From a virus: a stretch of 45,424 nucleotides of DNA. The first letter of the stretch is position 1; each line of letters opens with the position of its first letter. Where the stretch lies: the UHGV virus genome UHGV-0356033. The stretch is one strand, 5' to 3'. The position numbers and the translations under genes are program-made. Below the pieces are notes generated by a model. The model worked only from the letters and a program-made list of their open reading frames with translations, was not told the DNA's origin and did no database searches. Shown piece by piece: positions 137-37,383 of this stretch.

Positions 137-178
137 GTAAAAAATGAAAATACCCTACTCCTAGTCAGGAGTAGGGTA
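137..178 (-). terminator. intrinsic terminator downstream of gene 183..842
   Basis: 12-bp stem 151-162/167-178 (CCCTACTCCT/AGGAGTAGGG core) with 4-nt loop; followed on minus strand by T-rich run (complement of 137-150). Confidence 0.6.
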
Positions 179-182
179 GGTG

Positions 183-842
183 TTACATGCGGGTAACTGA
201 ATCCCAGTAATCACGAAGATATTCTTGGTCTTCAGGATCTTTTGGCGTAGCCGGAATGTGGCCGTCAAACTCAAACGGAATCACAGACAGAACATCCGCA
301 ATCTCGTAACGCTCGACTTCCAGTTCAACTTTCACCCAGTCACCGACGCTGGTACTACTACGCATCTCGGTGAGGAGATCGTTAAAGTCAGCCGAAACTT
401 CAATTGCAGGGTGTCCGGTGGTGATACTGAAAATATCAATATCCCAATGCTTAGCACCTTTATCGGCTAATTCACCCGGTTCTAAGTGAATACGTTTCAC
501 CAGGTGTGCCAAATAACCGTCCTTGTAGAAAGAGAGTGCAGAACTAATACCGATATCCGAATTCTCTTCAACCTTTCCGTCCAGGAATTTACGCTTAAGC
601 GTTAGCTGTGCTGTACCGTCTTCTTTAATACGGATACGACGACGCCCACCTTCTATCGGCATGAGAATGTCCATGAACATCTTAGTGGACTGTGCGTGTA
701 GCCAATCCCATCCCGCTTGCGTAGGTTTAACCCAGACGCAATATTCCTTTTCCACTTCACGTTTAATGGATTCGCCTGCAACGCGAATAACCTCTTCTTC
801 CTGCGCTTTTTCCAATTGCGCAAGGGTATCGAATAATCCCAT
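183..842 (-). CDS. hypothetical protein (219 aa)
   Basis: Long ORF; ATG 842-840 overlaps TAA of upstream gene (TAATG coupling); terminator follows. Confidence 0.6.
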   Translation of the reverse strand: MGLFDTLAQLEKAQEEEVIRVAGESIKREVEKEYCVWVKPTQAGWDWLHAQSTKMFMDILMPIEGGRRRIRIKEDGTAQLTLKRKFLDGKVEENSDIGISSALSFYKDGYLAHLVKRIHLEPGELADKGAKHWDIDIFSITTGHPAIEVSADFNDLLTEMRSSTSVGDWVKVELEVERYEIADVLSVIPFEFDGHIPATPKDPEDQEYLRDYWDSVTRM

Positions 843-1663
843 TAGATTAATCCCATACTTTCACTGACGCTCGTAATGTCGAACGTTGTGTCGTTAAAGT
901 CGATGTTTTCTACAATAGAAACCACCAGATTAGGAAGCCATTCTGAATGGGGCGGTGTAATAACCCGGCCGTTCATAACGTAGTAATGCAAGAACGGTAG
1001 TCCCATCGAATGGCAGTACGATAACACATTACCTAAGCAGCTTCCGTCAAACTTCAAGAGTTGGAGCTTACGCAGTAATGCGTTTTGAAATGCACCGTTC
1101 GCGTAATCGCTAAACTCGCCAGGCCGATAATCCGTGCCCCCGTAAATACTCGCCTTTAACCGCCGACCGCGTTGTATACATTCAGCCCCAGTCAGGGTGC
1201 GTAATAAACGGATGTCAGGATATTCAGTTTCCAAACGACCCAAAGCGTTTATTCCGTAACCCTTGTAGAACAGATAGTCTACGATCCTTAAATAATGATA
1301 GTAGCCTTCTAACGTTAAAAACTGACCGTGAATTGTGTCGAATTTCGCACCGTTAGGTTGCGCGTAGAAGTTACTGATCATTTTCCCTACGGTAGTACGA
1401 CCGTTAGAGTAAAAGTTAACATGGTTGATACCATCGGTAAAAGGGAGTTTTTCGGGTAACGCACAAACGTAGCCTAAACGACGAAGGTATAGGACATAAA
1501 CAAAGCGCTCATCAGGAGTAAGCACGATGTTTGACGCGTTAACGTATCCATTAGGATTATTTCGCCCAGGTTGATAACCCAGCGTTAATGCCAAAGCTTG
1601 ATTGTCTTCGCCCTGGCTTTTGATCTTCTTTAATACGGAACGCAGTAATTGTGGTTCGGACAT
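842..1663 (-). CDS. hypothetical protein (273 aa)
   Basis: ORF track 842..1684 begins at a TTG; first ATG at 1663-1661 has AAGAGG SD 6 nt upstream, start moved there. Confidence 0.55.
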   Translation of the reverse strand: MSEPQLLRSVLKKIKSQGEDNQALALTLGYQPGRNNPNGYVNASNIVLTPDERFVYVLYLRRLGYVCALPEKLPFTDGINHVNFYSNGRTTVGKMISNFYAQPNGAKFDTIHGQFLTLEGYYHYLRIVDYLFYKGYGINALGRLETEYPDIRLLRTLTGAECIQRGRRLKASIYGGTDYRPGEFSDYANGAFQNALLRKLQLLKFDGSCLGNVLSYCHSMGLPFLHYYVMNGRVITPPHSEWLPNLVVSIVENIDFNDTTFDITSVSESMGLI

Positions 1664-1673
1664 AACCGGCCTC

Positions 1674-2948
1674 TTAAATAGCAAAATAGTCTTCCACGAT
1701 TTTATCGGTAGACTGGTAACTTACACTGCCTGCAGCAATCACGTAATTACGTTTCTCGGTGGTTAGTAGCGCCTGAATCGCATTTACGCCTGCATAGGTG
1801 TAAAGTTTAAGTTCAGTCATTTCTGGCGTGATGTTTTTCGCTTTGTCCCATTTTGCATCTAATCCTTTAAATAGCGTTAATAGACGAGTGCCATACGTTT
1901 TGAAACTGACACCGGGTTCAACCCGAAGGTTAGCCATAAGGTTCTGGATAACGGTGGTTGCGATCTGAGTCCCTTGCCCCGGTTGGAGTTTATCCAGATA
2001 GTATTCCGTTGAATCCAGATTACCTGTCGCTGCTGCCTGAATCATCAGCTCGCCGTACAGTACCTCTTTCGCTTGTGCATCAGTAATCGCTTGAAGCATC
2101 GGTTCGATTTTAGCCGGTAAACCATAACTGTTCAGTTTAGTAGACAGGCCATAAATCAGCGCTGAAGAGGTATTAATGTCTAACGTGGAGAAACTGTTGC
2201 TGCCTTTAAAGCTGTTAATCAGGTTATCGATGGCTAGGAAGTCGTCCAAGTCTTTGTAGCTGTCGAAAGTATGCTGTACGTCATCAACAATCGAGGTGAT
2301 TTGATAACGCATACTGTTGACTTCGGACATAAACCCGTTGACTTCTTGACTAACTTCCGAGGGGAGTTTAGCCAGTTGCCCAGCAATGTTCATCGTCCCT
2401 TCGAGACGTTTTTTCACCGAGTTAAAGTCAGTACCGATACCTGATAAAACAGAGTCGGTTAAGCTGCCGATGCTGTCCCACCCTTTATTTAACAGTTTCC
2501 CCATCCCACCTGGACTTAGGTAGTCTAGCGCTTTTAGACCATCTTCATCCTTTTTCTTAAAAGGTTCAGAAACGTCACGCTTTTGCGGGTCGAGGACAGG
2601 AAGCGTTTCTTTGGTATTAGATGCAAAACCGGGAACCTTTTGTCCTGGAGATACACCGGAAGCCGAACTCCCCGCAGTCTTACTTCCTCCAACACTGGCG
2701 GTATCACTACCGCCAAAAAGGTTACCAATTTTGCTGGTCAGCTCGTTACCACCGCTAAGCAGTTTGTTGAATGTTTCACCAGCACGTTCTGATAATCGGT
2801 TGACGCTATCGACCGTGTTTTTAATACCACGCTCCGCATTTTCCACCGTTGATTGTACGCGGTTTGCGGCGTTCTTTGCCGTATTAACGGAATTATCGAT
2901 TGCCGACTGACCTTTATTTATCTGACTGGTTATTTGGTCGATTTTCAT
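1674..2948 (-). CDS. hypothetical protein (424 aa), coiled-coil N-terminus and Gly/Ser-rich linker
   Basis: ORF track 1674..2975 begins at TTG; ATG at 2948-2946 has GGAGA SD; N-terminal region rich in Q/N/K/E heptad-like sequence followed by GGS-rich segment. Confidence 0.55.
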   Translation of the reverse strand: MKIDQITSQINKGQSAIDNSVNTAKNAANRVQSTVENAERGIKNTVDSVNRLSERAGETFNKLLSGGNELTSKIGNLFGGSDTASVGGSKTAGSSASGVSPGQKVPGFASNTKETLPVLDPQKRDVSEPFKKKDEDGLKALDYLSPGGMGKLLNKGWDSIGSLTDSVLSGIGTDFNSVKKRLEGTMNIAGQLAKLPSEVSQEVNGFMSEVNSMRYQITSIVDDVQHTFDSYKDLDDFLAIDNLINSFKGSNSFSTLDINTSSALIYGLSTKLNSYGLPAKIEPMLQAITDAQAKEVLYGELMIQAAATGNLDSTEYYLDKLQPGQGTQIATTVIQNLMANLRVEPGVSFKTYGTRLLTLFKGLDAKWDKAKNITPEMTELKLYTYAGVNAIQALLTTEKRNYVIAAGSVSYQSTDKIVEDYFAI

Positions 2949-3756: not shown

Positions 3757-3789
3757 CACATCACCTTGTTACAAGGGGTTACTGGTTTA

Positions 3790-4338: not shown

Positions 4339-4409
4339 AATTCACTCCTAAAGAATGTCTCACGTAGATAATATCTGTCTGACTTCTTTTTGAAATTGAG
4401 GTAGTAAGA

Positions 4410-4874: not shown

Positions 4875-5550
4875 ATAAAGCGGCATCTCGTGGGTCGACA
4901 CCGACCCACTCTGCCATAAACCGGATATGTTCCTTAAACGGGTTAACCCCGTCTTGTTTGATTTGTTCAACCAATTCCCCGGTCAGTTCTGGTGTGAGCA
5001 TGGCAGGGTGTGTGATGGTAAAGCTTGGAATCGGTTTTTTCAAGTGTGTAGCGTTAAGCTTAATCCACTCGAACCAATCGTACATTATCCAGCAATCCCA
5101 CGCCAATGACAATCTCCCTGGTGTGAGATCTTCTAACGACCAAGACACTAATTCAACTTGTACGTTATTGTAGTACATCCGAAACAGATTCAAAAAGGCT
5201 TGAAGTTCTTCGCCCGTTAAATCCGTATAAGGCCACGTATTGATGGTTAGAGTGGGTTTTTCAATTGGCGAATGCATTTCGATTTCAAGCAGCATACACT
5301 CGAATTCGTTTTTCATTGTTGCCAATAATTCAGTAGGCTGCGCATTAATCAACGCGCGCTTATCCCGCTTCCGCCACTCTTCATCCCATTTTTCAAATCC
5401 AAGTACGCCAGCCCAAGCTTCTGTATAGCGACGACGATAAACATCGTAGTCTAGCAATGCTAAGCTTTCGGGCTTAACGGCTTTTACCCAACCTAAACGC
5501 GTATCAAATAACGTATCAATATCGATTAAGAAACGCCGAGATAATCTCAT
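4828..5550 (-). CDS. hypothetical protein (240 aa)
   Basis: ORF; ATG 5550-5548 overlaps TGA of upstream gene (ATGA); 3' end overlaps convergent gene 4410..4874 by 47 nt. Confidence 0.5.
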   Translation of the reverse strand: MRLSRRFLIDIDTLFDTRLGWVKAVKPESLALLDYDVYRRRYTEAWAGVLGFEKWDEEWRKRDKRALINAQPTELLATMKNEFECMLLEIEMHSPIEKPTLTINTWPYTDLTGEELQAFLNLFRMYYNNVQVELVSWSLEDLTPGRLSLAWDCWIMYDWFEWIKLNATHLKKPIPSFTITHPAMLTPELTGELVEQIKQDGVNPFKEHIRFMAEWVGVDPRDAALFSLARPAQDVQTPPS

Positions 5551-6215
5551 GACGGATGGCCTATGTTGTTACCGATATGCATCGCTTTTAGGTACGCCGA
5601 CCACGTACGCGTTGCTTTAGAACTCGTTCGCTCCGCTCCAGGCAAATCAATACGCCCTTTACCGGTTTGGCGCAGTGATTGATAGAAAGCACGTTGTAGT
5701 GCGTCGTTACCACCACGCGCCCACAAGAACTCTTTCAGTGTCCAGTCGTGGCCATCGGAATACATGATGTATGCCTCTGGGAAGGACACCCCAGATGCTT
5801 TGGAAGGTCCGACGACTTGACCGGAGAGTTTATCGCGGACTTTGTCGTTTTTCGCAACCGCCATTTTCTTTTCTTGCATCTGTGTCTGACGACGAACAGG
5901 CAAGCGTAAGACTAAGTGAGGGTAACGAGTACGGTGATAGACACCCGTTTTTGGTTCTGTTAACCAGAGTCGTTGCTCCAGGTTTACCCCGAGAATTTTG
6001 CACACCTCGATATTGCGCAGGTGGTCAATTTCGACTTTACTTCCCACCGGGTTGTAAATAGGCAAACCGTTACGAAGTCGGTTAAACTGTTCATCTGTCA
6101 TTCGAGCGAAGGCTTTCTTCGCGGCTTCAGCATTAATGCCAGAAGGGTCTACCAACTTTAAGATTTGTAAGGCGTAGGCTTCCGCCTTTTTACGCCGCGC
6201 TGGTTCGAGTTTCAT
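5547..6215 (-). CDS. hypothetical protein (222 aa)
   Basis: ORF with ATG 6215-6213. Confidence 0.55.
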   Translation of the reverse strand: MKLEPARRKKAEAYALQILKLVDPSGINAEAAKKAFARMTDEQFNRLRNGLPIYNPVGSKVEIDHLRNIEVCKILGVNLEQRLWLTEPKTGVYHRTRYPHLVLRLPVRRQTQMQEKKMAVAKNDKVRDKLSGQVVGPSKASGVSFPEAYIMYSDGHDWTLKEFLWARGGNDALQRAFYQSLRQTGKGRIDLPGAERTSSKATRTWSAYLKAMHIGNNIGHPS

Positions 6216-6489: not shown

Positions 6490-6533
6490 GATGACTCCTT
6501 AGGTCGGGTAGGGTTTACCCTACCCGAGCCTAT

Positions 6534-8030
6534 TTATTTCTTTTTCGTCAGGAACTTCGGTTCTAGTCCATCGACAGCCATACCCAGAATGGTACGTGCA
6601 GTCAGTGTACGTTTACCGCCTTTGGTTTCCTGGTCTTTAAACATCCAGTATTCTACCGTGTTGTCCAGAATTTCATTCCAGTCCCACATCTCGTCAATCA
6701 GTTTGTAAATCTCACCCATGCTGAGATGATACTTCATTTCAAGACGATGGTAGTTGTTTTGCATATACGCAATTGCCGCAGTGATTTCTAAAGCGCGACG
6801 TAAGCGGGCGTTATCAGAAATCATATCACGGATCGTCGTGCGTTGGAATTTCACACCAGGTAGAATATCCAGTTCTTTGATGGAACCGCCACTACCGCTT
6901 GATGTGAAACCAAAGTCTGACTTCTTCAGCGTGTCACTTAAATAGTGCCACAGGCTCAGGTGATATAGCAGACCCATTTCCTGAGAGAAGATCATCTGAA
7001 ATTTCACACCGGTGTGACCACCCTTCGCACGATACTGGGTAAAGGTGATAATCTTCAAGTCGTTTACCGACGCATTCATCGCTTTAGAACGTGACGTCGG
7101 ATAAAGTTCTTCGTTAACACCCGTCTGCGCGTTATAGCTCTGGTCTTTCTTCAATTCCCCTGATTTCGTCGCGACGATAAAAGAGTTTGTTAAAAAGCTA
7201 AGCTGACGGCGAGGAATACCTGCGAATTTTAAATCGTCGTTGGCGTCGTCGAGAATTTTTGCATTTGCTTTTTGAGCCTGTCGGCCACCCGCCATCGCTT
7301 TCCCAGAGTCATCGGCCATCTGTGCCACGAAGCCCATGTAAAAACCACCGCGTGCAAACGCAGACGGCCAGCGGCTCATCATATTCGATTTTTGCAGCGC
7401 ATCGTGGGCGTTTAGGATGTTCTGATCAGAATCCCCAATATCAGTTTTTGCGTGTTTGTCTTCCAGCGAACTGGAATGCCACTCTGACAGGGAGTCGATA
7501 GAATAAAGCCAGGGGTCCAGGATTTCTTTTAACTTACGACGAACTGGATCGGGGAACGGTGTTACGCGGGTTTTACCAGACATATACTGCTTGAAGCGTT
7601 TTTCAACTTCATCACGAATATAATCACTGTAATACTGTTCCCCGGGCATTACGTCAGAACCGACCAGGTTATAACGACCTTCGTGGATAAGTTCCAGTAC
7701 GGATGTTCCGTCGTCGATACCGTTGGCGTTCATGGCAGAGATGTACCCAGTTTCTAAACGATCGAGGGCAGCGGACACTTCTGTATCGTACTTAGAACCC
7801 CACTCTGCTTTATAACGTTGCAGGATTTGGAAGATACAGAAATCTAACAAGGTGGATTTAAAGGTGTTTCCGCGACCTGCGAAACCCATGATGTGGGCAA
7901 AACCACCGTTAAGGTAGTACAAACCATCTTCACCTTTTTCGTAGTTACCTAAGGCATGATCCATGATGGTGTAAACGTTAAAACGTGGACGAATTACTTC
8001 ACCGATAACTTGCTTAGTTGGGCCTGCCAT
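6534..8030 (-). CDS. hypothetical protein (498 aa)
   Basis: Long ORF; ATG 8030-8028 with GGAG SD; contains GFAGRGNTFKST segment that is only loosely P-loop-like, so no function called. Confidence 0.6.
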   Translation of the reverse strand: MAGPTKQVIGEVIRPRFNVYTIMDHALGNYEKGEDGLYYLNGGFAHIMGFAGRGNTFKSTLLDFCIFQILQRYKAEWGSKYDTEVSAALDRLETGYISAMNANGIDDGTSVLELIHEGRYNLVGSDVMPGEQYYSDYIRDEVEKRFKQYMSGKTRVTPFPDPVRRKLKEILDPWLYSIDSLSEWHSSSLEDKHAKTDIGDSDQNILNAHDALQKSNMMSRWPSAFARGGFYMGFVAQMADDSGKAMAGGRQAQKANAKILDDANDDLKFAGIPRRQLSFLTNSFIVATKSGELKKDQSYNAQTGVNEELYPTSRSKAMNASVNDLKIITFTQYRAKGGHTGVKFQMIFSQEMGLLYHLSLWHYLSDTLKKSDFGFTSSGSGGSIKELDILPGVKFQRTTIRDMISDNARLRRALEITAAIAYMQNNYHRLEMKYHLSMGEIYKLIDEMWDWNEILDNTVEYWMFKDQETKGGKRTLTARTILGMAVDGLEPKFLTKKK

Positions 8031-8443: not shown

Positions 8444-9199
8444 ATGAATGTAAATCCACTTGCAGCGTTATCTAGCTTCGCCGCTAAAGCGTCTGCAATC
8501 TTACCGAAAGGGTTTAGCGGCCCTCAACAAGAGATTGCATTAACCACTTATGACGAGATGTCGGACGTTTCCAAGTGGATGCAACAAGAAAAATTCCTAC
8601 ACTTTGCGGGAATGTTGGTTATCGTTCCACCTGGGTTTAATACCTACGTGATGGATCACTTGAACCGCTTAGAATCCGTATGGAGTTCACTGCAAAACAT
8701 CTATACGGGTATTCTGCTGCCGGTCGATAAACAACTTTCGGCCCTTACACATGATGTGGGTGTACTGTCATTACCGATTGGTTTCCGTTACAAAAATGTT
8801 AATATACCTTTACGTAACGTTAACCCGAAAGATCTGGTTAACTTGTTAGCGAAATCGTACACTAACAACGTTATCGACCAGCGACCAATTGAGAAGACGT
8901 ATCACAGCGCGTCCGAAATTGATGTTGCGTTCAATCGCGCTAAGGCACTGAACGTTGAAATCACAAAACGTCTACGGACGAACATCGACAAGTCAATCGA
9001 GTCTATTCGCACTACGTCAGAAATCTTGTCCGAACAAAACATTCATCCGAATGTAGCAAAAGAACTGACGATGATGTTAGATTTTGCTTCCGATTGGGTG
9101 GAGCTGTTTGGTTTGTTCATGAAGCAGGTTAACGAATTAATCGAATGCCTGAACGTTACTGCCGAACGCTTAAAAGCGCTTAAGGCAAACAAAAAATAA
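8444..9199 (+). CDS. hypothetical protein (251 aa)
   Basis: ATG 8444 with GAGG SD; followed by bidirectional terminator. Confidence 0.6.
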   Translation: MNVNPLAALSSFAAKASAILPKGFSGPQQEIALTTYDEMSDVSKWMQQEKFLHFAGMLVIVPPGFNTYVMDHLNRLESVWSSLQNIYTGILLPVDKQLSALTHDVGVLSLPIGFRYKNVNIPLRNVNPKDLVNLLAKSYTNNVIDQRPIEKTYHSASEIDVAFNRAKALNVEITKRLRTNIDKSIESIRTTSEILSEQNIHPNVAKELTMMLDFASDWVELFGLFMKQVNELIECLNVTAERLKALKANKK

Positions 9200-9252
9200 A
9201 AAAGTAAAGCTACCCCTAGACCGTGTGGTCTAGGGGTAAACTATTTATTTCC
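9200..9252. terminator. bidirectional intrinsic terminator between convergent genes
   Basis: 12-bp stem 9211-9222/9227-9238 with GTGT loop; A-run upstream and T-rich run downstream. Confidence 0.6.
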
Positions 9253-10144
9253 CACGATAAAATCCAGAGATGTAGCTTGGCGCTATCCATCGCCATTCGC
9301 GCCAGCGCATTTCTGACATTTTACCACACCATACACGCTTCCAATGAGCACGACGGATATGTGCTGCGCAATAAATTGCCAAACAAACCTCGTGTCCTTC
9401 CTTGCGTTGCTGCTCTATATCTTCCCATTGTACCGGACTTACGTCTAAAACGACTGCTTCACTACGTGGGCGAATCTCTGTATCAGGAACATAACGAATC
9501 GTTCTTCCACGAAATTCTTTCTTCTCACGTTCAGTACGTTTAATTCGTGACGAAAGGTATAGCCCGATGTAGACGGCGTCGAGTAGTCGTTGATTCTCCT
9601 TAACCGAAGTAAGAAGCGGTTTTAGCACGACGAAATCATCTTCGCTTTTATCGATTTTGTAAATCTCAAACTCCATGTATACCGATTCTTCACGTTCTTC
9701 GCATGACATTACGAAGAGAACTTCTTCGCCTTCGTAAAGACGTCTTCCGATAAATAACGTGATTGGGCTTTCGTCGAGATTTACGGTAACCGAGAAAGTA
9801 AATGAAGGGATGGTTTCTATCCAGAAGTACGGGACATTTTTTAGTCTCTCAGTTTTTGCTAAGAGCGCCATCAGTTCTTCGTCTGAGATGATTTCAACAG
9901 CAGCGTATTGCCATCCTAGGCCCAGGGACTGTTTAATCAGTCTAGGAATCTGTTCTGTAACACCATACTCTTGATAGGTCGGATCTTTAACTGGCATAAA
10001 CGTTACGGGTATTTGTCGTTTATGCTCGTTAATGAACCGAATAAAACGGCACTGGTCTAATCCGTGAATTGTTTGGTGCGCTTTTTCTATCTGTTCGCTC
10101 ATGCGTCTTAGCGCTTTCCCGTAAAGTCTATTATTCGCTATCAT
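9245..10144 (-). CDS. hypothetical protein (299 aa), paralogue of 10170..11096 with shared C-terminal AAHIRRAHW motif
   Basis: ORF track 9245..10240; start moved to ATG 10144-10142 with AGGAG SD 7 nt upstream; aligns with neighbour along most of its length. Confidence 0.55.
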   Translation of the reverse strand: MIANNRLYGKALRRMSEQIEKAHQTIHGLDQCRFIRFINEHKRQIPVTFMPVKDPTYQEYGVTEQIPRLIKQSLGLGWQYAAVEIISDEELMALLAKTERLKNVPYFWIETIPSFTFSVTVNLDESPITLFIGRRLYEGEEVLFVMSCEEREESVYMEFEIYKIDKSEDDFVVLKPLLTSVKENQRLLDAVYIGLYLSSRIKRTEREKKEFRGRTIRYVPDTEIRPRSEAVVLDVSPVQWEDIEQQRKEGHEVCLAIYCAAHIRRAHWKRVWCGKMSEMRWREWRWIAPSYISGFYRGK

Positions 10145-10169
10145 TTTAATGCTCCTAAACACTTTTAGC

Positions 10170-11096
10170 TTAATTGTGGGGTACGTAGCCACGGACAAAT
10201 GTAGGTGGAATCCAGTAAAGTTTTCTCTTCCTTTCCCCATCTCTTGGACCGACCCAATATCTGCGCCAGTGCGCGCGACGAATATGTGCGGCCTTGGCGT
10301 GTTTGATACCTTCCATGGTTTTCAAGTCGGTGTTAAATCCCTTTAGATATTTCACTTGTCCTGGCGTGATGTCTATTTTAACGTCACGTTCACGAGGTTT
10401 GATTTCGTGACTTATGCTACCATTCTTTTTGATTTCTTTGAACTTAATGTCATTGAAAGACCCTCTGAGATTAGGCGGGATTAGCGTACAGAGAAATATC
10501 AACGATATGGCGGTTTTAGCCAGTGATAACCATAACGTCTTCTCTTGTTCGGTCTGTACGCCAGTCGTATAATCGATTTCAACAAGCCCGTTTCCAACAC
10601 TACATATCTCTAACGAGCAGGTGGCGATCGTGGTAACGCCTTCTGTTAACCCGTAATCAGTATTTGTAGCAATTATAATAAACCTTCTATTCCCATTTTT
10701 TCGATAACCGAGAAAGAAAGTCTCATCTTCTTTACCTACATCGATTGCTACAGTCCAAGTAGGTATAAAGTCTAACCACTCTTCAGGGAATTTACTGGGC
10801 ATCTCAGTCTCGAAAACAAGTTCTCTAAGTGCTCGATCGGATATTAAGGAAGCACCACCGTATAGCCATCCAATTGCCAATGTTTGTGCGTGAAGGGAAT
10901 GGGGATCTTTGAGACCTAACTCAGCATCGTAGGGTATAAAGGCATTAGTTAAATGCTTACGATTCTTTTTTATCCATTTCGAGACAGGATTTTCCTTTAT
11001 TCGGTTTTCTTCCATGACATTTTCAAGATGCTGAGACCCCATTTGTCTAAGGCAGTCTTTAATACCTTTTACTTTTTTACTTTTGTACAAATACAT
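10170..11096 (-). CDS. hypothetical protein (308 aa), paralogue of 9245..10144
   Basis: ATG 11096-11094 with AGGAGAA SD; C-terminus KAAHIRRAHWRRYWVGP...WIPPTFVRGY matches CAAHIRRAHWKRVWCG...WIAPSYISGF of neighbour. Confidence 0.6.
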   Translation of the reverse strand: MYLYKSKKVKGIKDCLRQMGSQHLENVMEENRIKENPVSKWIKKNRKHLTNAFIPYDAELGLKDPHSLHAQTLAIGWLYGGASLISDRALRELVFETEMPSKFPEEWLDFIPTWTVAIDVGKEDETFFLGYRKNGNRRFIIIATNTDYGLTEGVTTIATCSLEICSVGNGLVEIDYTTGVQTEQEKTLWLSLAKTAISLIFLCTLIPPNLRGSFNDIKFKEIKKNGSISHEIKPRERDVKIDITPGQVKYLKGFNTDLKTMEGIKHAKAAHIRRAHWRRYWVGPRDGERKRKLYWIPPTFVRGYVPHN

Positions 11097-11117: not shown

Positions 11118-11150
11118 TAAAAATAAAGTAACCCTAGCCGAAGCTAGGGT
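11118..11150 (-). terminator. intrinsic terminator downstream of gene 11156..11644
   Basis: Stem 11131-11138/11143-11150 with CGAA loop; T-run on minus strand. Confidence 0.5.
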
Positions 11151-11155: not shown

Positions 11156-11644
11156 TTAATCTATTTTGACGTAATCGGGATAGTTAGCTTTTAGCCACTC
11201 CCATAGTTGCAGAGCAAGTTGGTTTTCGTTACGCTTGATGATTTCTACGATTTCGTTCAAGAGAGAGTCTTCAACCCAAATCCGGGTATAAAATTTTTCC
11301 CATTCCGGTTCTGTATAAGGGACTAGCGGGGTAGGGAATCGTCCCATGTGGTACGCATCAGAAACTTTCTTTAAGAACTCGTTGCGACCATGGCGTAGGC
11401 GTTGCCGTACGTCTGTTTCTGTTATGCGCTTGCTTGATGGATCGAAGAAATCAAGTATGATAAATATGTATCCAAATAAGCTCTGAGAAGAAAAGTAGGA
11501 CGCGGCGTAGTCCGCCATCCAGGGAGTGTCTACAACTAACGGAGTCAACTTTTCTTCAATTTCTTTTCTTACACGCGTTCCGTTATTGAGAAATTCATGT
11601 ACGAAATCGGTGTCACGAATATCGAAGTTATGATTTAAGTTCAT
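11156..11644 (-). CDS. hypothetical protein (162 aa)
   Basis: ATG 11644-11642 directly after stop of upstream gene; AGGA SD. Confidence 0.55.
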   Translation of the reverse strand: MNLNHNFDIRDTDFVHEFLNNGTRVRKEIEEKLTPLVVDTPWMADYAASYFSSQSLFGYIFIILDFFDPSSKRITETDVRQRLRHGRNEFLKKVSDAYHMGRFPTPLVPYTEPEWEKFYTRIWVEDSLLNEIVEIIKRNENQLALQLWEWLKANYPDYVKID

Positions 11645-11645
11645 T

Positions 11646-12170
11646 TTACTGTCCTAAAATTGGGGAGAGTTTGTCTGCGGTGTTTAACAACGCTTTTGTA
11701 ATTTCGTGGTTGGTCTCTTTTAGGATGATGCAGCAGAGAGTGGTATAAACCTCGATTGCTAACGCGATTTCTTGTTCAGTCAGGCACGGTTCGGTACCGC
11801 CAATCCCGTAACGTTGCGCTGCATATTCAATTTCAAGTTTCAAACGTTTTCGTAGTGCCTCATCGTTAGTTAAACGCGTACACGCCCGATCGAAACGTCT
11901 ATTGTAAGCCTCGATCTTGTGGACAATTTCGCGTCGCAGTTGGTCGACATTTACGTTATCATCAAGAGTGATGGTGACGTTGTCAACTAAACAGTAATGC
12001 ACTGTGTGTCGTAAGTTGTGTAATGTGGCGACAGTAACGACCCGCTCCTGATGGTCGCTAAAGCCGTGAGCACCACAGAGCTTGCGTGCAACCGCGCCAG
12101 AGATTTTCTCCTCTAGCGCTATCGGTGTGGCAATGGTTGTTTTCTTACGAAGCTGAATTAAAATATCCAC
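11646..12170 (-). CDS. hypothetical protein (174 aa), GTG start
   Basis: No in-frame ATG near 5' end; GTG at 12170-12168 preceded by AAGGAG SD with 7-nt spacer. Confidence 0.5.
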   Translation of the reverse strand: MDILIQLRKKTTIATPIALEEKISGAVARKLCGAHGFSDHQERVVTVATLHNLRHTVHYCLVDNVTITLDDNVNVDQLRREIVHKIEAYNRRFDRACTRLTNDEALRKRLKLEIEYAAQRYGIGGTEPCLTEQEIALAIEVYTTLCCIILKETNHEITKALLNTADKLSPILGQ

Positions 12171-12172
12171 GA

Positions 12173-12715
12173 TTATACTCCTTTAGGTTGACCGTATTTT
12201 GATGACAGGTAGATGAGCTCAGCATGACAGATTTTCTCAACTAACCCGAGTGTCTCAATGAAAATATCCCGGATACGGGACATTGTTTCGTTGGTAAGAA
12301 TATCGCTCCAACACGTTGTGTCTATTATATCCGTCGTTGAAGATTGTCGCTGCAATATGGCGACATACACTTCGTCGAGGGTATCTGGAGCATTATTCTG
12401 TAAGTAATGCGCGGCATGTAGAAAGGCTTTCTCAAGAATCAGGTGAATATCCGTATCGGGATCAGTTACCCGCACCAAATGTGGGTATGTCATGGCCGAA
12501 CGGATTTTTCGTTCTAACTGTTCAATGAGATTATTCACCATCGCTTCTGAATCCAGGATAGTAATTTCGACCCCACTGTGTTCTTCAGAAATCTTGTTCT
12601 CATGTACTGCTATCGCGTCGTGCAGTTCAAACGCAACGCGGCTACGCATCTCACTTAACAGTTTGTTTAATTTACCCCGTGACTCGCTGAGTGAGAAATC
12701 GATAAGTATTTTCAT
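12173..12715 (-). CDS. hypothetical protein (180 aa)
   Basis: ORF track 12173..12745 begins at GTG; ATG 12715-12713 lies right after TAA of upstream gene (TAACATG); start uncertain. Confidence 0.45.
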   Translation of the reverse strand: MKILIDFSLSESRGKLNKLLSEMRSRVAFELHDAIAVHENKISEEHSGVEITILDSEAMVNNLIEQLERKIRSAMTYPHLVRVTDPDTDIHLILEKAFLHAAHYLQNNAPDTLDEVYVAILQRQSSTTDIIDTTCWSDILTNETMSRIRDIFIETLGLVEKICHAELIYLSSKYGQPKGV

Positions 12716-12716: not shown

Positions 12717-13454
12717 TTAATAGCCCTGATAAATAATGTCGTCACGGTCTTTACGTAACTGGCAGTATGTTACGTCAGCACCGTTAGGGATTTGTACGCC
12801 AGCGTCTTCAAGATAAATAACACCAGTCTGATTACAGAAATAAAAAGACCACAAGTACGGATTGCCTTGACAACTGTTTTCACGATGATCGAAGGGCCAA
12901 TAGCCTCGATACAATTCGTCGTAATCACCGCGCTCGATACCAAAAGCAATCATTTCTTTTTCCCACAATCTGCTTTCGGCGTCGTAAATCGAAAACCAGA
13001 AACCGACGAGGTTCTTTGTCCGTTTAACGTTCATTAAGTCGTTATAAATGGGGTAGAGTGCTTTATTGAAACTTTCTAACATCTCTGGAGAGAGTAGAAA
13101 GTTCACGTAGTATTCTAGCCATTGATAAACGGCTTCCCAGACATCTTCAGAAGAGAAATGCTCGAATACGGCGTCATCACAATCGTAGTTATCGAAGACC
13201 CCTGAGAGATCTATTATGACGTCGCGAAGGTCAAAGTTTCGGTTGCTATTGACACCCTCAATAACTTCAGCGATGAGACGAGTAAAGACGTTTGTGCAGG
13301 CAGTCTGTGCGGTATAAAAGAATTCTCCTTGTACGGTTGACCACTTTGGGTCCTTCAAATGTTCATTGAAGTATTGTGGCCAAATTTTATAAAAGATTCC
13401 CTCGAACAACGAGGGATTGATACGTTGTAATTGAGGGACATAAACTTTTAGCAT
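12717..13454 (-). CDS. hypothetical protein (245 aa)
   Basis: ORF with ATG 13454-13452 and GGAG SD. Confidence 0.55.
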   Translation of the reverse strand: MLKVYVPQLQRINPSLFEGIFYKIWPQYFNEHLKDPKWSTVQGEFFYTAQTACTNVFTRLIAEVIEGVNSNRNFDLRDVIIDLSGVFDNYDCDDAVFEHFSSEDVWEAVYQWLEYYVNFLLSPEMLESFNKALYPIYNDLMNVKRTKNLVGFWFSIYDAESRLWEKEMIAFGIERGDYDELYRGYWPFDHRENSCQGNPYLWSFYFCNQTGVIYLEDAGVQIPNGADVTYCQLRKDRDDIIYQGY

Positions 13455-16452: not shown

Positions 16453-16496
16453 TTAAAAAGAAAGACCCTCCTGTACCACGAAAGGGTACAGGAGGG
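16453..16496 (-). terminator. intrinsic terminator downstream of gene 16501..16956
   Basis: 12-bp stem 16466-16477/16485-16496 with 7-nt loop; T-run on minus strand. Confidence 0.6.
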
Positions 16497-16500: not shown

Positions 16501-16956
16501 TCAGTACAAACACGATGTCAAGTATTGGTTGTACGAATCGAGTAGTGTCTGACGGTCGGAGCGGTAATTCCACAACAAATTATTGAGTTTACGCGATAGG
16601 TCACGGCTAATCTCCTGGGGCGTTAAAGAGCTTTCATCGAGAGATAAGCGTTCAGGTACAACATGTAACTTCGGTAACTCATAACGCTCACAAAGTGGAG
16701 CCAGCATTGGTGGGCTCCAGCCACGTTTAACGGCTTGTTGGTTTAAATTTCGGGTGTAGACATAAACGTAGTAAGCATAGGTGTTGACATCCGCAACATA
16801 CTCACGCATTGCATTATTGTCAATTTTCCAATTCACCATTATTGGTGGTGTAGGAGGAAGTTCCAGTGGCCTATAAGCTGGACGTTTAACTTCGTCGCCG
16901 TAGCTATTACTCACCAACCCCACGAACACCATCATGATGAATAACAGCATTTTCAT
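16501..16956 (-). CDS. secreted protein (151 aa) with Sec-type signal peptide
   Basis: ATG 16956 with AAGGAG SD; N-terminus MKMLLFIMMVFVGLVSNSYG; no lipobox Cys. Confidence 0.55.
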   Translation of the reverse strand: MKMLLFIMMVFVGLVSNSYGDEVKRPAYRPLELPPTPPIMVNWKIDNNAMREYVADVNTYAYYVYVYTRNLNQQAVKRGWSPPMLAPLCERYELPKLHVVPERLSLDESSLTPQEISRDLSRKLNNLLWNYRSDRQTLLDSYNQYLTSCLY

Positions 16957-16959
16957 CAA

Positions 16960-18862: not shown

Positions 18863-18865
18863 TGA

Positions 18866-19489: not shown

Positions 19490-19495
19490 AAAGAT

Positions 19496-19532
19496 TACCC
19501 TACTCCCGAAGGAGTAGGGTAGCTTTTATTTT
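19496..19532. terminator. bidirectional intrinsic terminator
   Basis: 11-bp stem 19496-19506/19511-19521 (TACCCTACTCC/GGAGTAGGGTA) with CGAA loop, followed by TTTTATTTT. Confidence 0.65.
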
Positions 19533-20082: not shown

Positions 20083-20099
20083 TTTAATACTCCTAAGGT

Positions 20100-20135
20100 G
20101 GAAAAAGAATTAACCCTACTCCCGGAGGAGTAGGG
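20100..20135 (-). terminator. intrinsic terminator downstream of gene 20144..21076
   Basis: Stem 20114-20122/20127-20135 (CCCTACTCC/GGAGTAGGG) with CGGA loop; T-run on minus strand. Confidence 0.6.
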
Positions 20136-20143
20136 GATTTAAA

Positions 20144-21076
20144 TTACTTTTTGGTTTGACCCAGGTTTTCAAGAACCAGTTCACGAATGTACTTCTGAGT
20201 ACGTTTCTTCGGCGGTAAAGCCATAAGGGTGTCAACGATTCCCTGCCCACCGATAACCTTGCTGACGAGTTGTTGAACTTGGAAGAGTTCTGCTTCTTCG
20301 TCACTGATTTCATTAGCTTGGTCTTTCTGACACAATGCTTCTACCAGGTCAGCTACGGATATTTCATTTTCGTCACCAGGGAAATCCAGGTTTAACGATT
20401 CGAAAACATCACGCTTAACGAGCACAGATTTCAGATCATCGTAGTTTTCACAAACGGCGACTTCTGTGCCAGGTACCGTTTCTTCTTCGTCTTGATCTTC
20501 ATTCTCAGCGGAGAGGTAACTTACTTCTGTTGCGTGGAATGTTGCGTCAGCTTTTCTCAGGACGTAGCTCACATGCGACCAATTGCTCAGGATGAAGTAG
20601 ACAACACCCCCATTTAATCCGATATTGCCCTGGCGAAGTTCGAGAGCAATTTCCAGGCGGCGTGAAATCTGCCCCAAGTCAAAGAAAGACTCGTCGCGTG
20701 CCGCAACAACTTCGTACTGATTCACCCCTTGTTCTACAACAACGAACCAGTTATCCGGGAGAGGATACGGGTTGCGCATGAAAGAAAGTTCGTTCCCTAC
20801 GCCTGGGTCAACAGTAACGGATGTATGGCGCATTCCCATGGAGAAGTTGAACGTATCCCCATTTAGAACCGCAATTGCACCGTCAATCGGAAGAATTTTG
20901 GTGGTACGATCAATAGAGAAAATCTCTTTCTGCGTAATTGAAGGCTGATTACTGCCTAGGAAGTGATTACGCAGAAAAGCAGCGGTTGCACCTACGCTGG
21001 TTTGTAGCATATGGTAATTATAACGACGACGTAGAGTGTTAGCCAGTTCGTAAATTACTTCAGATGGAAAAGTCAT
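20144..21076 (-). CDS. hypothetical protein (310 aa)
   Basis: ATG 21076-21074 with AGAGGA SD. Confidence 0.6.
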   Translation of the reverse strand: MTFPSEVIYELANTLRRRYNYHMLQTSVGATAAFLRNHFLGSNQPSITQKEIFSIDRTTKILPIDGAIAVLNGDTFNFSMGMRHTSVTVDPGVGNELSFMRNPYPLPDNWFVVVEQGVNQYEVVAARDESFFDLGQISRRLEIALELRQGNIGLNGGVVYFILSNWSHVSYVLRKADATFHATEVSYLSAENEDQDEEETVPGTEVAVCENYDDLKSVLVKRDVFESLNLDFPGDENEISVADLVEALCQKDQANEISDEEAELFQVQQLVSKVIGGQGIVDTLMALPPKKRTQKYIRELVLENLGQTKK

Positions 21077-21129
21077 TTTAATAGTCCTCTTTTAGGTTTG
21101 TTCAAATCAACTAAGGGTTATGTAAAAAG

Positions 21130-21609
21130 TTAAAATAATGGCAAGTTACGCCATTGACCTACGGAATAAAAAGCTTTTGGATGTTTACGGATATACGCTT
21201 TCGCTTCTTCTGGCAACCAACGGTCACCTACCAGTTTTTGTTGTGCAACAATTACCGCCATCAACAAATACGGGTTTTTCGCACCGGGGAACTTTGCATT
21301 GGTTTCTAGTGCAATATCCAATATTGACGACCAGCCCAGTAATTTATGCTGCGCCGGTAAACGTTCTTCAATATACATCAGCCATTTCATGATTTGTTTA
21401 GGCTTGTACGGACAGGTATAATTCGCCCAACACACCATGACGAACTTAATAGCCTTCGCAATCACCCATACAGGGACAGTCACGAAAAGGCAGAAAATGG
21501 CCAACTGCGAGGCGGGCGCTTCGACAAAAGTAAGCGCTACAAGAACCATACACAGTTCAAGTACCACAAACCAAAAACGCGTTGGATAACGCCAAATGAA
21601 TTTTATCAT
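21130..21609 (-). CDS. membrane protein (159 aa), two N-terminal hydrophobic helices
   Basis: Hydrophobic stretches FWFVVLELCMVLVALTFV and LAIFCLFVTVPVWVIAKAIKFVMV. Confidence 0.5.
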   Translation of the reverse strand: MIKFIWRYPTRFWFVVLELCMVLVALTFVEAPASQLAIFCLFVTVPVWVIAKAIKFVMVCWANYTCPYKPKQIMKWLMYIEERLPAQHKLLGWSSILDIALETNAKFPGAKNPYLLMAVIVAQQKLVGDRWLPEEAKAYIRKHPKAFYSVGQWRNLPLF

Positions 21610-21629
21610 AACTCTGTTCCTTTAGGGAA

Positions 21630-21670
21630 TGAAAATAAAAGTACCCCTTACTCCGTATAGGGTAAGGGGT
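21630..21670 (-). terminator. intrinsic terminator downstream of gene 21676..22185
   Basis: Stem 21643-21651/21662-21670; T-run on minus strand. Confidence 0.5.
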
Positions 21671-21675
21671 AGAGG

Positions 21676-22185
21676 TTAGAAGAACGGCTGGTTTGGAATG
21701 ACAGCGTACTCTAAAATGAACATGTGTTCTGGGGCGTCTTCTTTACGCCAGACTTTGTGTGTCGACACAAGTTTTTCCAGAATCGTTAAGAAACTACGTT
21801 GGCAGTATGTGTTTTCACCAAGCAGTAGATTTTGAAGTTCTACAGTAGCGTCCATATACGCCTGTTTAAAGACTAAATTACGGTTATACTGCCCGGTAAA
21901 ATTCCAAAGCAAGACTTTCCCTTCTTCGGTTTCTTTTACCGTTGGTCGTAAACCACAAATCCACAACAAGGCAAGGTTGACGTTCCAGTCAAACTCTAAA
22001 CCTTCTTCTTCGTCATCACCGAATGCTGTGGGTAAAGCATCGTAAAATTCGTGTTTCTCTGCGAATTCTTCATCCGACTTAATCTCGTCTTCGATACTGC
22101 TTCGGACGATACTGTAAACGTCTTTCGCGGTCAATTGTGCGGCTTTTGTAATGCCTTTATACCAATCGGTTACTACGATGCTCAA
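21676..22185 (-). CDS. hypothetical protein (169 aa), TTG start
   Basis: No ATG at 5' end; TTG 22185-22183 preceded by AGAGGAG SD with 7-nt spacer; overlaps TGA of upstream gene. Confidence 0.5.
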   Translation of the reverse strand: MSIVVTDWYKGITKAAQLTAKDVYSIVRSSIEDEIKSDEEFAEKHEFYDALPTAFGDDEEEGLEFDWNVNLALLWICGLRPTVKETEEGKVLLWNFTGQYNRNLVFKQAYMDATVELQNLLLGENTYCQRSFLTILEKLVSTHKVWRKEDAPEHMFILEYAVIPNQPFF

Positions 22186-27676: not shown

Positions 27677-27719
27677 AAAAAGAAAAAAATAAAGAAAGGG
27701 AGAACCCGAAGGTTCTCCC
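27677..27719 (-). terminator. intrinsic terminator downstream of gene 27725..28333
   Basis: Stem 27698-27706/27711-27719 (GGGAGAACC/GGTTCTCCC) with CGAA loop; long T-run on minus strand. Confidence 0.6.
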
Positions 27720-31584: not shown

Positions 31585-31626
31585 GTGAGAGCTTTTGTAC
31601 TCTCACCTAAGTAATATATATCTGAA
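31585..31626. promoter_or_regulatory. conserved regulatory element copy 1: stem-loop plus 19-bp motif TAAGTAATATATATCTGAA
   Basis: Stem GTGAGAG/CTCTCAC (31585-31591/31600-31606) immediately followed by motif at 31608-31626; identical 19-mer recurs at 35894-35912. Confidence 0.4.
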
Positions 31627-31644
31627 ATTATTTTTAATATTAAC

Positions 31645-31679
31645 GAACAAAAAATAAAAGGTGGGGGTTTACCCCCACC
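31645..31679 (-). terminator. intrinsic terminator downstream of gene 31684..32262
   Basis: G/C stem GTGGGGG/CCCCCAC around 31660-31679; T-run on minus strand. Confidence 0.5.
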
Positions 31680-33048: not shown

Positions 33049-33061
33049 TTCTATTTCCTTC

Positions 33062-33089
33062 TTAACAAAAGCCGCGACTAAAGCGCGGC
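33062..33089 (-). terminator. intrinsic terminator downstream of gene 33116..34267
   Basis: Stem GCCGCG/CGCGGC (33071-33076/33084-33089); TTTTGTT on minus strand. Confidence 0.45.
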
Positions 33090-33115
33090 AGTTAGAGAAA
33101 GTGTATTTTCACTTA

Positions 33116-34267: not shown

Positions 34268-34296
34268 TTTTACTCTCCTTTAGGGTTTTTCGTTAC

Positions 34297-34851: not shown

Positions 34852-34880
34852 GGTATATTCTCCTTTTTCGGTTTTCTTAA

Positions 34881-35618
34881 TTACGCGGTTTTAATTAGCA
34901 GCAGATAGTCTTTCGTAATCTCAGCACAACTCCACCCTCTCATCGTGGCGATTTTACGAAGATCGATTTTCTCGTGATATCTCAATAAGGGATCGTCCGG
35001 GTTAATTTCAACCAGGTGGGTGGCTTTAGAAATCGTTTCTACATCAGGGATCTGTTTTGCTAAGTCTGATGCAATCAGTTCAATAACGCGGTATCCATTT
35101 AATACAGAAACATAAATGCGTAAACCATATAGCGTGCCCTCGTCTTCTAATGGACAAAGATCGATGCCAGGTCCAAGCAGTGATAACTCGACGTTATCGG
35201 GAAGGTTTTCTGCATTTCGGAGTAACCCTATCCCATTTCTAAACAGAGGGAAGTAAGAGAATAGTGGTGGTAAAGCCCAACCGTTCCCAATAAGCACATC
35301 AGCGATACTAGTAGGTGTGTTCGCAAGAAGACGAATGTGGTCAGCCACAACTTCAAGTTCGGCGTCACTGATCAACTTATAGATTAACATGACACTGGTT
35401 TCGGTATTAATAACAAAGAAGACGCGGTTGGCGTAACTACCTATCGTGTATTCGTCAATCATACGGTCGATAACGTCACTGTCTGGATAATCTTCAGGTT
35501 TAATTGTTCCGGCGTCGATTAACTTAGCAGGTTGCGATTGTTTTATTAGTTCGTTAACCACCGTAGAAGAAAGTTCTAAACTGGTGTTAGTAAAGATATC
35601 GTCTAATAATTCTCTCAT
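34881..35618 (-). CDS. paralogue-array member D (245 aa), divergent C-terminal motif
   Basis: ATG 35618; N-terminus MRELLDDIF matches member A; C-terminus RGWSCAEITKDYLLLIKTA is a degenerate version of the motif. Confidence 0.5.
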   Translation of the reverse strand: MRELLDDIFTNTSLELSSTVVNELIKQSQPAKLIDAGTIKPEDYPDSDVIDRMIDEYTIGSYANRVFFVINTETSVMLIYKLISDAELEVVADHIRLLANTPTSIADVLIGNGWALPPLFSYFPLFRNGIGLLRNAENLPDNVELSLLGPGIDLCPLEDEGTLYGLRIYVSVLNGYRVIELIASDLAKQIPDVETISKATHLVEINPDDPLLRYHEKIDLRKIATMRGWSCAEITKDYLLLIKTA

Positions 35619-35714
35619 GATTTACTCGCTAATCCCAATGAAGGGAAGGCTATTATTATGGATTGTAAAAGAGGTATAAGGAAGTCACTACGTTCCTCTG
35701 GGAAGAGTATGTCG

Positions 35715-35773
35715 GTATACTCCGTATACCTCCGCTATTTATATCCGTATACATAATGCCCCCTACCCCCTAC
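35715..35773. repeat. three TC(C/G)GTATAC palindrome-containing repeats plus tandem CCCCTAC x2
   Basis: GTATAC at 35715-35720, 35724-35729 and 35747-35752; CCCCTAC at 35760-35766 and 35767-35773; inside a 320-bp divergent intergenic region. Confidence 0.5.
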
Positions 35774-35860
35774 CGGTATCCCGAGTAGCAGAATAAAGGG
35801 GCAGACTGTAAAATTTTAGTAACCTTTAACGAAAGGTACTAAAAGGATAACGTGCCCGTA

Positions 35861-35912
35861 GGGACTGAACTGGTACTTCAGTCCCTATTCACTTAAGTAA
35901 TATATATCTGAA
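35861..35912. promoter_or_regulatory. conserved regulatory element copy 2: stem-loop plus 19-bp motif, 28 bp upstream of gene 35940
   Basis: Stem GGGACTGAA/TTCAGTCCC (35861-35869/35877-35885) followed by TTCACT then TAAGTAATATATATCTGAA at 35894-35912. Confidence 0.45.
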
Positions 35913-35939
35913 TTCAATTCCGATCTAAGGAACGTCCCG

Positions 35940-36905: not shown

Positions 36906-37022
36906 TTCCCCTTTTTCTTACGTTGTTTTTATATATTGTGACCTGACGTTGGTAAAACTTTTTATCAACACTTTTCTTAAACCCATCGTTTAGTTAAGCA
37001 GGCCACTTTTTCGCGCACTCTA

Positions 37023-37042
37023 CTCCTCCCTACGGGGAGGAG
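37023..37042 (+). other. G/C-rich stem-loop upstream of DUF1471 gene
   Basis: CTCCTCCC/GGGAGGAG stem with TACG tetraloop; weak U-tract, so insulator or weak terminator. Confidence 0.3.
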
Positions 37043-37111
37043 CTATCTTATGCTTCGGTTGTAACACACGTCGGTCTTAGACCAACATTCCTTTTGAAAT
37101 GGAGAGCTGTT

Positions 37112-37321
37112 ATGTCTATTAAAGAGTTCTCTTCTGCTGAGCATATTCCAGAAGAGTTTAAGAAAATCGGTAACGTTAGCGCTTTCGGCGACACCGTTGA
37201 TCATGTAACTGGTAAGCTGGCTGCTGAAGCCGAAAAAATTGGCGGCGACGCATTCAAGGTTATCGGTATTTCCGGCAACAACAAACTGCACGGTAACGCG
37301 ATTGTCTACAAAAAAGACTAA
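37112..37321 (+). CDS. DUF1471-domain protein (BhsA/McbA/YdgH-like), 69 aa, no signal peptide
   Basis: KIGNVSAFGDTVDHVTGKLAAEAEKIGGDAFKVIGISGNNKLHGNAIVYK matches, from memory, the C-terminal domain of E. coli BhsA (...LEEQLAQKADEMGAKSFRITSVTGPNTLHGTAVIYK); GGAGAG SD 5 nt before ATG 37112. Confidence 0.55.
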   Translation: MSIKEFSSAEHIPEEFKKIGNVSAFGDTVDHVTGKLAAEAEKIGGDAFKVIGISGNNKLHGNAIVYKKD

Positions 37322-37323
37322 GC

Positions 37324-37383
37324 GAAAAAAAAAAACGTGCTACTCCTACCCTCTTAGAGGGTAGGAGGTTACTTTATTTTTTT
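37324..37383. terminator. bidirectional intrinsic terminator
   Basis: A10 run, then palindrome CCTACCCTCT/AGAGGGTAGG (37345-37365), then TTACTTTATTTTTTT; serves DUF1471 gene and convergent gene 37374..38636. Confidence 0.65.

Follow-up and report, generated by a model that had tools for sequence, protein, structure and literature searches.

A shared stem among putative intrinsic terminators of a jumbo phage related to SPN3US

Introduction

Transcript mapping in the phiKZ-like jumbo phages has described the closest counterparts of the elements studied here, a family of intergenic, terminator-like hairpins with closely similar stems in UHGV virus genome UHGV-0356033, a 45,424-nt stretch of viral DNA (the window; coordinates are 1-based on the whole stretch). 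In phiKZ, long-read RNA sequencing mapped 133 terminators and six bidirectional regions, and 61 intrinsic terminators share the motif BCCYCCCCHWWDGGGRRGGBYTTATKYYGT (Putzeys et al. 2024, PMC10914365). In 201phi2-1, a similar motif (motif A) is found on 59 of 132 terminators, and the eight terminators tested work in vivo in the uninfected host with the host polymerase (PMC11512511).

Other known elements resemble these hairpins in part. Bacterial Rho-independent terminators also combine a GC-rich hairpin with a U tract, and the symmetry of A and T tracts makes them bidirectional, but they are not drawn from one stem consensus. The PeSLs of T4-like phages are composite promoter-terminator stem-loops (Arbiol et al. 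2010, PMC2839356; Comeau et al. 2014, PMC4122927), that is, repeated and sequence-related stem-loops between the genes of a large virulent phage. The REP/BIME and MITE-like repeats are likewise short intergenic palindromes present in several copies.

Here, we describe the hairpin family of the window and compare it with these systems. The family hairpins are likely to be intrinsic terminators of an SPN3US-related phage, bidirectional at convergent genes, with stems that lie near a clade consensus.

Hairpins with a common stem at gene ends

The hairpins of the window were listed in a census of its perfect inverted repeats. Three intergenic hairpins, at 151-178, 19496-19521, and 20114-20135, have the stem core CCCTACTCC/GGAGTAGGG in common, and looser relatives of the stem are located at 37343-37367, 9211-9238, 11131-11150, and 16466-16496. 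The 10-mer ACCCTACTCC occurs exactly five times in the window, each time inside an arm of a family hairpin, and a sixth hairpin arm carries it with one base changed. All five hairpins named by an earlier sequence-only reading exist at their coordinates, with only 6504 doubtful as a family member; the census added 9211-9238, 11131-11150, and 16466-16496. The hairpins are as follows.

151..178, minus strand: hairpin TACCCTACTCCT/agtc/AGGAGTAGGGTA, with minus-strand tail TTTTCATTTTTT
19496..19521, both directions: hairpin TACCCTACTCC/cgaa/GGAGTAGGGTA, with T-rich tails GCTTTTATTTTA and ATCTTTTTAG
20114..20135, minus strand: hairpin CCCTACTCC/cgga/GGAGTAGGG, with minus-strand tail TTAATTCTTTTT
37343..37367, both directions: hairpin CTCCTACCCTC/tta/GAGGGTAGGAG, with T tracts flanking both sides
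9211..9238, both directions: hairpin TACCCCTAGACC/gtgt/GGTCTAGGGGTA, with tails both ways
11131..11150, minus strand: hairpin ACCCTAGC/cgaa/GCTAGGGT, with a UUCG loop and minus-strand tail TACTTTATTT, past gene 11156-11644(-)
16466..16496, minus strand: hairpin CCCTCCTGTACC/acgaaag/GGTACAGGAGGG, with tail TCTTTCTTTT, past gene 16501-16959(-)
6504..6527, plus strand: hairpin TCGGGTAGGG/ttta/CCCTACCCGA, with a 5' arm rich in G, located 3' of the UvsX-like gene 6534-8030(-); doubtful member

Each family hairpin is situated a few bases 3' of a stop codon. The 151-178 hairpin lies 4 nt beyond the stop codon of 183-842(-), the gene homologous to SPN3US gp041, and folds at -20.6 kcal/mol (z -5.25). 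The 19496-19521 hairpin, which folds at -21.6 and -23.5 kcal/mol, is located between the convergent genes 18866-19489(+) and 19531-20082(-). The 20114-20135 hairpin (-18.3 kcal/mol), which also occurs in close relatives, directly follows the stop codon of 20144-21076(-), a gene with weak homology to SPN3US gp065. Convergent genes also surround the 37343-37367 hairpin (the DUF1471-like 37112-37321(+) and 37374-38636(-)) and the 9211-9238 hairpin (8444-9199(+) and 9245-10240(-)).

The tested hairpins fold at -15.5 to -24.7 kcal/mol, with z values of -4.0 to -6.3 against shuffled controls, and the family hairpins stand at the top of the terminator-scan lists. A stable GC-rich hairpin and a T/U tract follow the stop codon at the family sites except 6504, which has no sense tail, and 20114, whose tail is weak. 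Fold, placement, and T tails agree with the earlier description of these hairpins as terminator-like. No match to the window came from tRNA scans or from Rfam at gathering thresholds.

In an oriented census, which comprised 12 directions from 10 strong T-tailed hairpins of the window and included non-family terminators, the commonest loop was UUCG. Among oriented hairpins, TTAT occurs within 12 nt of the stem in 7 of 12 from the window, 27 of 45 from SPN3US, and 16 of 20 from phiKZ. Seven to eight of the 10-11 tailed window hairpins are C-first. At the convergent sites, the stem lies between an A tract and a T tract; therefore, either transcript ends in a hairpin and a U tract, and both strands yield the same stem because it is a perfect palindrome between the two tracts. 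Since it has T-rich tails both ways, the 19496-19521 hairpin is probably a bidirectional terminator.

The sequence-only reading had taken 6504-6527 as an inverted variant of the family. This hairpin exists, but its tie to the family is weak and its membership doubtful, because its G-rich arm comes first and the shared sequence is limited to the 6-mer CCCTAC, located on the other arm. A T-rich tail, GCCTATTTATTT, follows it only on the plus strand, antisense to the surrounding genes, and in the sense direction the hairpin abuts the ribosome-binding site of the next gene.

Stem sharing beyond chance

As a control, we shuffled every arm, keeping its own composition, in 5000 trials. The observed shared run of 11 bases was equalled in 0 to 2 of the 5000 shuffles. 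When the three near-identical copies were collapsed to one, the C-rich arms shared 5-mers in 11 pairs versus 4.1 expected, a value reached in 19 of 5000 shuffles. Because this excess remains after the trio is collapsed, the looser family is real but weaker, and the tight trio sits within it. In SPN3US, 10 pairs of C-rich arms share at least 8 bases versus 1.5 expected, and none of 1000 shuffles reached this number. The shuffles of the window and of SPN3US agree with the earlier argument that independent terminators would not come to share a stem by chance.

The source phage and its relatives

From its sequence relationships, the source is best placed as an enterobacterial, phiKZ-like jumbo phage of ~223 kb that falls outside the genus of SPN3US. 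Read in reverse orientation, the window aligns collinearly with ~150-196 kb of Salmonella phage SPN3US, itself phiKZ-like, at ~70% DNA identity, and the 498-residue product of 6534-8030(-) is a UvsX-like recombinase with 81% identity to SPN3US gp050. Some IMG/VR contigs of 220-225 kb are closer to it, with 80-96% DNA identity. These relatives were reached via protein search and IMG/VR; a near-identity DNA search of the GenBank phages with window positions 18000-22000 gave no match. The phage polymerase genes are assigned only by synteny, through the SPN3US "RNA polymerase beta subunit" gp048, and Pfam gave no match for 5547-6215.

The exact DUF7194 protein of 18866-19489(+) is present on 221-225 kb contigs from many metagenomes and in 301 blocks of a public assembly collection, and a 99%-identical homologue carries the label Escherichia coli in an NCBI entry. 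The phage is common, and its host is likely to be enterobacterial. Near the 37343-37367 hairpin, the mechanical open reading frame 37043-37291(-) is probably spurious and was dropped for 37112-37321(+), whose DUF1471-like product has 45% identity to SPN3US gp094.

The same junctions in relatives

Homologous sites in related phages carry a hairpin at the same junctions, with compensatory changes in the stem. At the 19496 site, the SPN3US stem is CTACCTACTCC versus TACCCTACTCC in the window; at the 37343 site, it is ACCCTACTCCC/gtt/GGGAGTAGGGT versus CTCCTACCCTC; and at the 9211 site, it is TACCCACTCCC versus TACCCCTAGACC. At the 151 site, SPN3US has TGCCCTCTCC with G-U pairs versus TACCCTACTCCT in the window, followed by a nearly identical tail, and at the 16466 site it has TCCCTCTTACC/ttcg. 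The SPN3US hairpin at the 6504 site is G-first too (GGGCGGG/gcaa), but it has a sense-strand T tract.

The hairpin after the gp064 homologue (the 19496 site) is present in nine of nine relatives, down to 48% protein identity. Four close relatives carry the window's stem at this junction, and relatives of other genera differ by 2 to 6 pair changes in which both sides of the stem have changed. Such both-sided changes at a kept site indicate that the hairpin structure is selected and the site inherited. The gp052/053 and gp041 junctions likewise keep the hairpin at its site while the stem drifts, and the 151-178 hairpin is kept in the relatives at 80-96% DNA identity. At the gp052/053 junction, where the window has TACCCCTAGACC (9211), three distant phages with a UvsX identity of 67-69% have (A)CCCTACTCC, which is the stem used in the window at three other junctions.

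These comparisons bear on the spread of a small palindromic element, which the sequence-only reading had raised as a source of the shared stem. A mobile element of the MITE or REP kind spreading through the genome would leave several near-identical intergenic palindromes, as are found in the window, and the same core does occur in many jumbo-phage contigs. However, the members of the trio are alike only in the stem: their loops differ (agtc, cgaa, and cgga), and their flanks cannot be aligned. Each copy is placed precisely at a gene 3' end and has a T tail, every examined site is occupied across genera with compensatory drift, and neither an empty site nor a target-site duplication was seen in the regions compared, which are part of the genome. 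Compared with the REP/BIME and MITE-like repeats, whole-element identity and insertion polymorphism are absent here, and the sites are orthologous across genera. Spread of a mobile palindrome is therefore extremely improbable, and we return to intrinsic terminators with inherited positions as the preferred reading.

A clade-wide stem consensus

The shared stem is most likely a clade-wide consensus, roughly (T)ACCC(T)ACTCC. In SPN3US, ACCCTACTCC is found at other junctions (113924 and 160009), and other stems are repeated there as well, namely CCCTCTTACC three times and (T)ACCCACTCC(C) three times. IMG/VR contains 87 copies of the hairpin CCCTACTCC-N3-9-GGAGTAGGG at 84 loci, and contigs of 218-253 kb carry most of them. 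Genomes of the window's lineage have ~6 each, and 62 of the 87 copies have a flank rich in A or T. A literature search for the stem sequence returned unrelated primers and short hairpin RNAs only, and no paper was found on the terminators of SPN3US-like phages.

At other IMG/VR loci (L037, L042, L056, L059, L074, L077, L038, L040, L072, and L090), the core is inside a longer stem, for example CTAC-CCCTACTCC...GGAGTAGGG-GTAG or CCCTAC-CCCTACTCC; in many cases, T tails are missing and the flanks are conserved. These loci may represent a different repeated element made of the same words.

The recurrence of one stem suggests that it might also serve as a sequence-specific recognition site for a phage-encoded termination or anti-termination factor, a protein that binds or protects RNA 3' ends, an RNase, or the phage multisubunit RNA polymerase. 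We regard this as rather improbable: other stems in the same genomes (CCCTCTTACC, TACCCACTCCC, and G-first stems) indicate that no single sequence is required, variants are exchanged at orthologous sites, the 201phi2-1 terminators act in the uninfected host with the host polymerase, and no candidate binding protein was identified. A recognition site would nevertheless fit the presence of the same 9-10-mer at non-orthologous sites in several genera, the likeness of the stems beyond what composition predicts, and the invariance of the stems among near-identical strains whose loops are free to vary. The window also encodes an RNase H-domain protein and a 3'-5' exoribonuclease-like protein, neither of which is linked to the hairpins.

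The 19496/20114 pair, loop inversion, and recombination

The product of gene 19531-20082(-), 183 amino acids long, is a truncated paralogue of its 310-amino-acid neighbour encoded by 20144-21076, with 26% identity (E 1e-8), and the gene is bracketed by the near-identical hairpins 19496 and 20114. It is present in all close relatives and absent from SPN3US and from the loci of the ~245 kb relatives L029 and L030. The pair probably also reflects an ancient local event in which a gene was duplicated along with its terminator. The proteins are now highly divergent and the stems are not, which points to a constraint on the stem or to conversion between the copies. Paralogy was considered for all three copies of the tight trio and rejected, as only 19531-20082 and 20144-21076 are clearly related and 183-842 is marginal at most (E 0.008).

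Among strains that are 80-99% identical, the stems are invariant and the loops vary, often as exact reverse complements. The loop pairs cgaa/ttcg, ttttcg/cgaaaa, cgga/tccg, and acac/gtgt were observed (window 9223-9226, 19507-19510, and 20123-20126; loci L105, L109, L118-L123, L026, and L027), and they look like repeated inversion by template switching or arm recombination. An inversion of this kind swaps which transcript receives the stable UUCG loop.

A variable segment at 11.2-12.6 kb, the only one in 18 kb of comparison among close relatives, has one edge 60-80 nt from the 11131-11150 hairpin; its other edge falls at ordinary gene junctions that lack a hairpin. The stretch 11209-12598 is replaced or highly diverged in L109, L103, and L104, which elsewhere have 80-95% identity to the window.

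DNA-level copying by short-patch recombination, gene conversion, or recombination joints that move cassettes, as in PeSLs, could in principle keep the stems alike. The lineage-specific 19531-20082 between near-identical hairpins, with its paralogous proteins at 26% identity, the loop inversions as DNA-level events at palindromes, the UvsX-like recombinase of the phage, and the edge of the variable segment near hairpin 11131 are all consistent with it, and PeSLs are documented in T4-like phages (PMC2839356, PMC4122927). We nevertheless consider such copying quite improbable as the cause. The segment's other edge has no hairpin, no conversion tract extends into the flanks, and the cassette 19531-20082 is fixed in every close relative examined. 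Furthermore, PeSLs hold an early promoter and edge variable cassettes, whereas the three CCCTACTCC hairpins have no adjoining promoter-like element and the variable segment seen here does not have hairpins at both breakpoints. With one lineage-specific gene bracketed by repeated, sequence-related stem-loops, the PeSL model is only weakly echoed here. Intrinsic termination with stems near a consensus remains the preferred reading of these hairpins.

Comparison with phiKZ-type terminators

The window hairpins resemble the phiKZ and 201phi2-1 motif in their occurrence in a phiKZ-like jumbo phage, a C-rich 5' arm and a G-rich 3' arm, short loops that are often UUCG, a T-rich TTAT tail, a position at gene ends, bidirectionality at convergent genes, and the reuse of stems. 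In a census of phiKZ at 100-150 kb, CCCTCTCC and GCCCTCCC are each used twice, the tails read tttatg, and the published consensus matches five hairpins; the phiKZ hairpins were tied to the published motif by this consensus search only. Counts of C versus G in the 5' arms are 45-51 versus 20 in the window, 208 versus 64 in SPN3US, and 80 versus 27 in phiKZ at 100-150 kb, and C and G make up 46% and 17% of the 5' arms in the window, 50% and 11% in SPN3US, and 50% and 18% in phiKZ. Bacterial Rho-independent terminators differ in this respect, in that a small sample from E. coli has no such arm asymmetry; the E. coli stretch was taken in place of a T4 control, which was uninformative with two qualifying hairpins in 50 kb.

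The two groups also differ. The window stems have 9-12 bp versus ~7-8 bp and a TAC-containing core, (T)ACCC(T)ACTCC, and the phiKZ and 201phi2-1 terminators are transcript-mapped, whereas the window hairpins are known from sequence. The window hairpins are an apparent SPN3US-clade version of a known signal and not the same motif, because they have no match to the consensus, longer stems, and the TAC core.

Other terminator-like hairpins and a promoter-like element

Terminator-like hairpins with unrelated stems are located in the window at 13398, 27698, 28903, 31660, and 37023. Four of them are given below.

13398..13416, minus strand: terminator-like hairpin TCCCTCG/aacaa/CGAGGGA, with tail ATCTTTTATA, a C-rich 5' arm, and an unrelated stem
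27698..27719, minus strand: terminator-like hairpin GGGAGAACC/cgaa/GGTTCTCCC, G-first, with a minus-strand UUCG loop and tail TTTCTTTATT
31660..31679, minus strand: terminator-like hairpin GGTGGGGG/ttta/CCCCCACC, with tail TTTTATTTTT and a conserved promoter-like element directly after
37023..37042, plus strand: hairpin CTCCTCCC/tacg/GGGAGGAG, in a 206-nt spacer before gene 37112-37321(+), with a weak T tail and an uncertain role

A conserved, AT-rich promoter-like element, TTCAGATATATATTACTTA(G/A)GTGA, is located at 31598-31640(-) and 35885-35925(-), followed in each case by a hairpin. The copy at 31598-31654 has 88-100% identity to three distant jumbo-phage contigs. TTTCAGATATATATTACYTAGGTGAGAG occurs seven times in SPN3US, in several cases a short way downstream of a terminator (e.g. 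56299, 94244, and 113991). The element is probably a phage promoter with a conserved leader. In the window, the element with TATATTAC occurs only at 31611 and 35897, where it follows the unrelated terminator 31660 in the former case, and none is found beside the hairpins at 151, 19496, or 20114. A likeness of TATATTAC to the phiKZ early promoter was not confirmed in the paper checked and is not used as evidence.

We do not count the hairpin 35859-35887 (TAGGGACTGAA), a candidate inverted member, in the family; since it stands directly after the promoter-like element, it is probably a 5' leader hairpin. It lies in a 321-nt gap between divergent genes (35619-35939), together with the promoter-like element and a tandem CCCCTACCCCCTACC (35760-35774). 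Ahead of gene 34881-35618, the leader on the minus strand would span ~270 nt, with no match in Rfam, and the leader in this gap may hold a small RNA or a small open reading frame.

Discussion

Reading the family hairpins as intrinsic terminators builds on their anatomy, stability, and placement, on compensatory conservation, and on the non-random sharing of their sequences. The transcript would fold into a 9-12 bp stem with a C-rich 5' arm, a G-rich 3' arm, and a loop that is often UUCG; a U-rich tail, often with UUAU, would follow, and the polymerase would release there. At convergent gene pairs, the hairpin would probably act both ways. The stem at each site would drift through paired compensatory changes while it stays near (T)ACCC(T)ACTCC, and this consensus appears to be kept at many unrelated junctions of the present phage, of SPN3US, and of more distant relatives with a size of ~240 kb. 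Candidate causes of the constraint are a preference of the phage polymerase, a 3'-end binding factor, and copying between terminators. Selection that keeps the stem near the consensus, for example through the phage RNA polymerases or for 3'-end stability, would account for it. An absolute sequence requirement is not indicated, because many terminators in the same genomes use other stems and because the 201phi2-1 terminators work with the host polymerase.

Several points weigh against this reading. Termination itself we infer by analogy with the mapped terminators of phiKZ and 201phi2-1, and a search of the window with the published phiKZ consensus, allowing up to three mismatches, gave no match, so that the apparent link to phiKZ is one of shared design and not of sequence identity. 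The E. coli control for arm asymmetry (25 C versus 26 G) is small, consisting of one 50 kb stretch with 10 hairpins. The tail of hairpin 20114 is weak in T and reads TTAATTCTTT, and hairpin 6504 has no sense-strand T tract. In addition, structure and composition alone do not account for the same 9-10-mer at unrelated sites in several genera, and the reuse of the stem could be due in part to a sequence-specific binding partner, or to copying or gene conversion among the terminators.

Taken alone, the finding is one of ordinary gene punctuation. It extends the terminator design of phiKZ and 201phi2-1 to the enterobacterial SPN3US-related jumbo phages, and the clade consensus (T)ACCC(T)ACTCC with a T-rich TTAT tail is usable to mark operon ends in poorly annotated genomes. 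A speculative and rather unlikely extension is that (T)ACCC(T)ACTCC is a true sequence signal read by the phage multisubunit RNA polymerases or by a 3'-end RNA-binding factor. If true, such a signal would explain the C-first, G-last stems across the phiKZ-like phages, from Pseudomonas to enterobacterial hosts, and the recurrence of the same 10-mer at unrelated junctions. The finding sharpens the question of why phages that supply RNA polymerases of their own retain a terminator whose sequence is constrained and whose arms are asymmetric.

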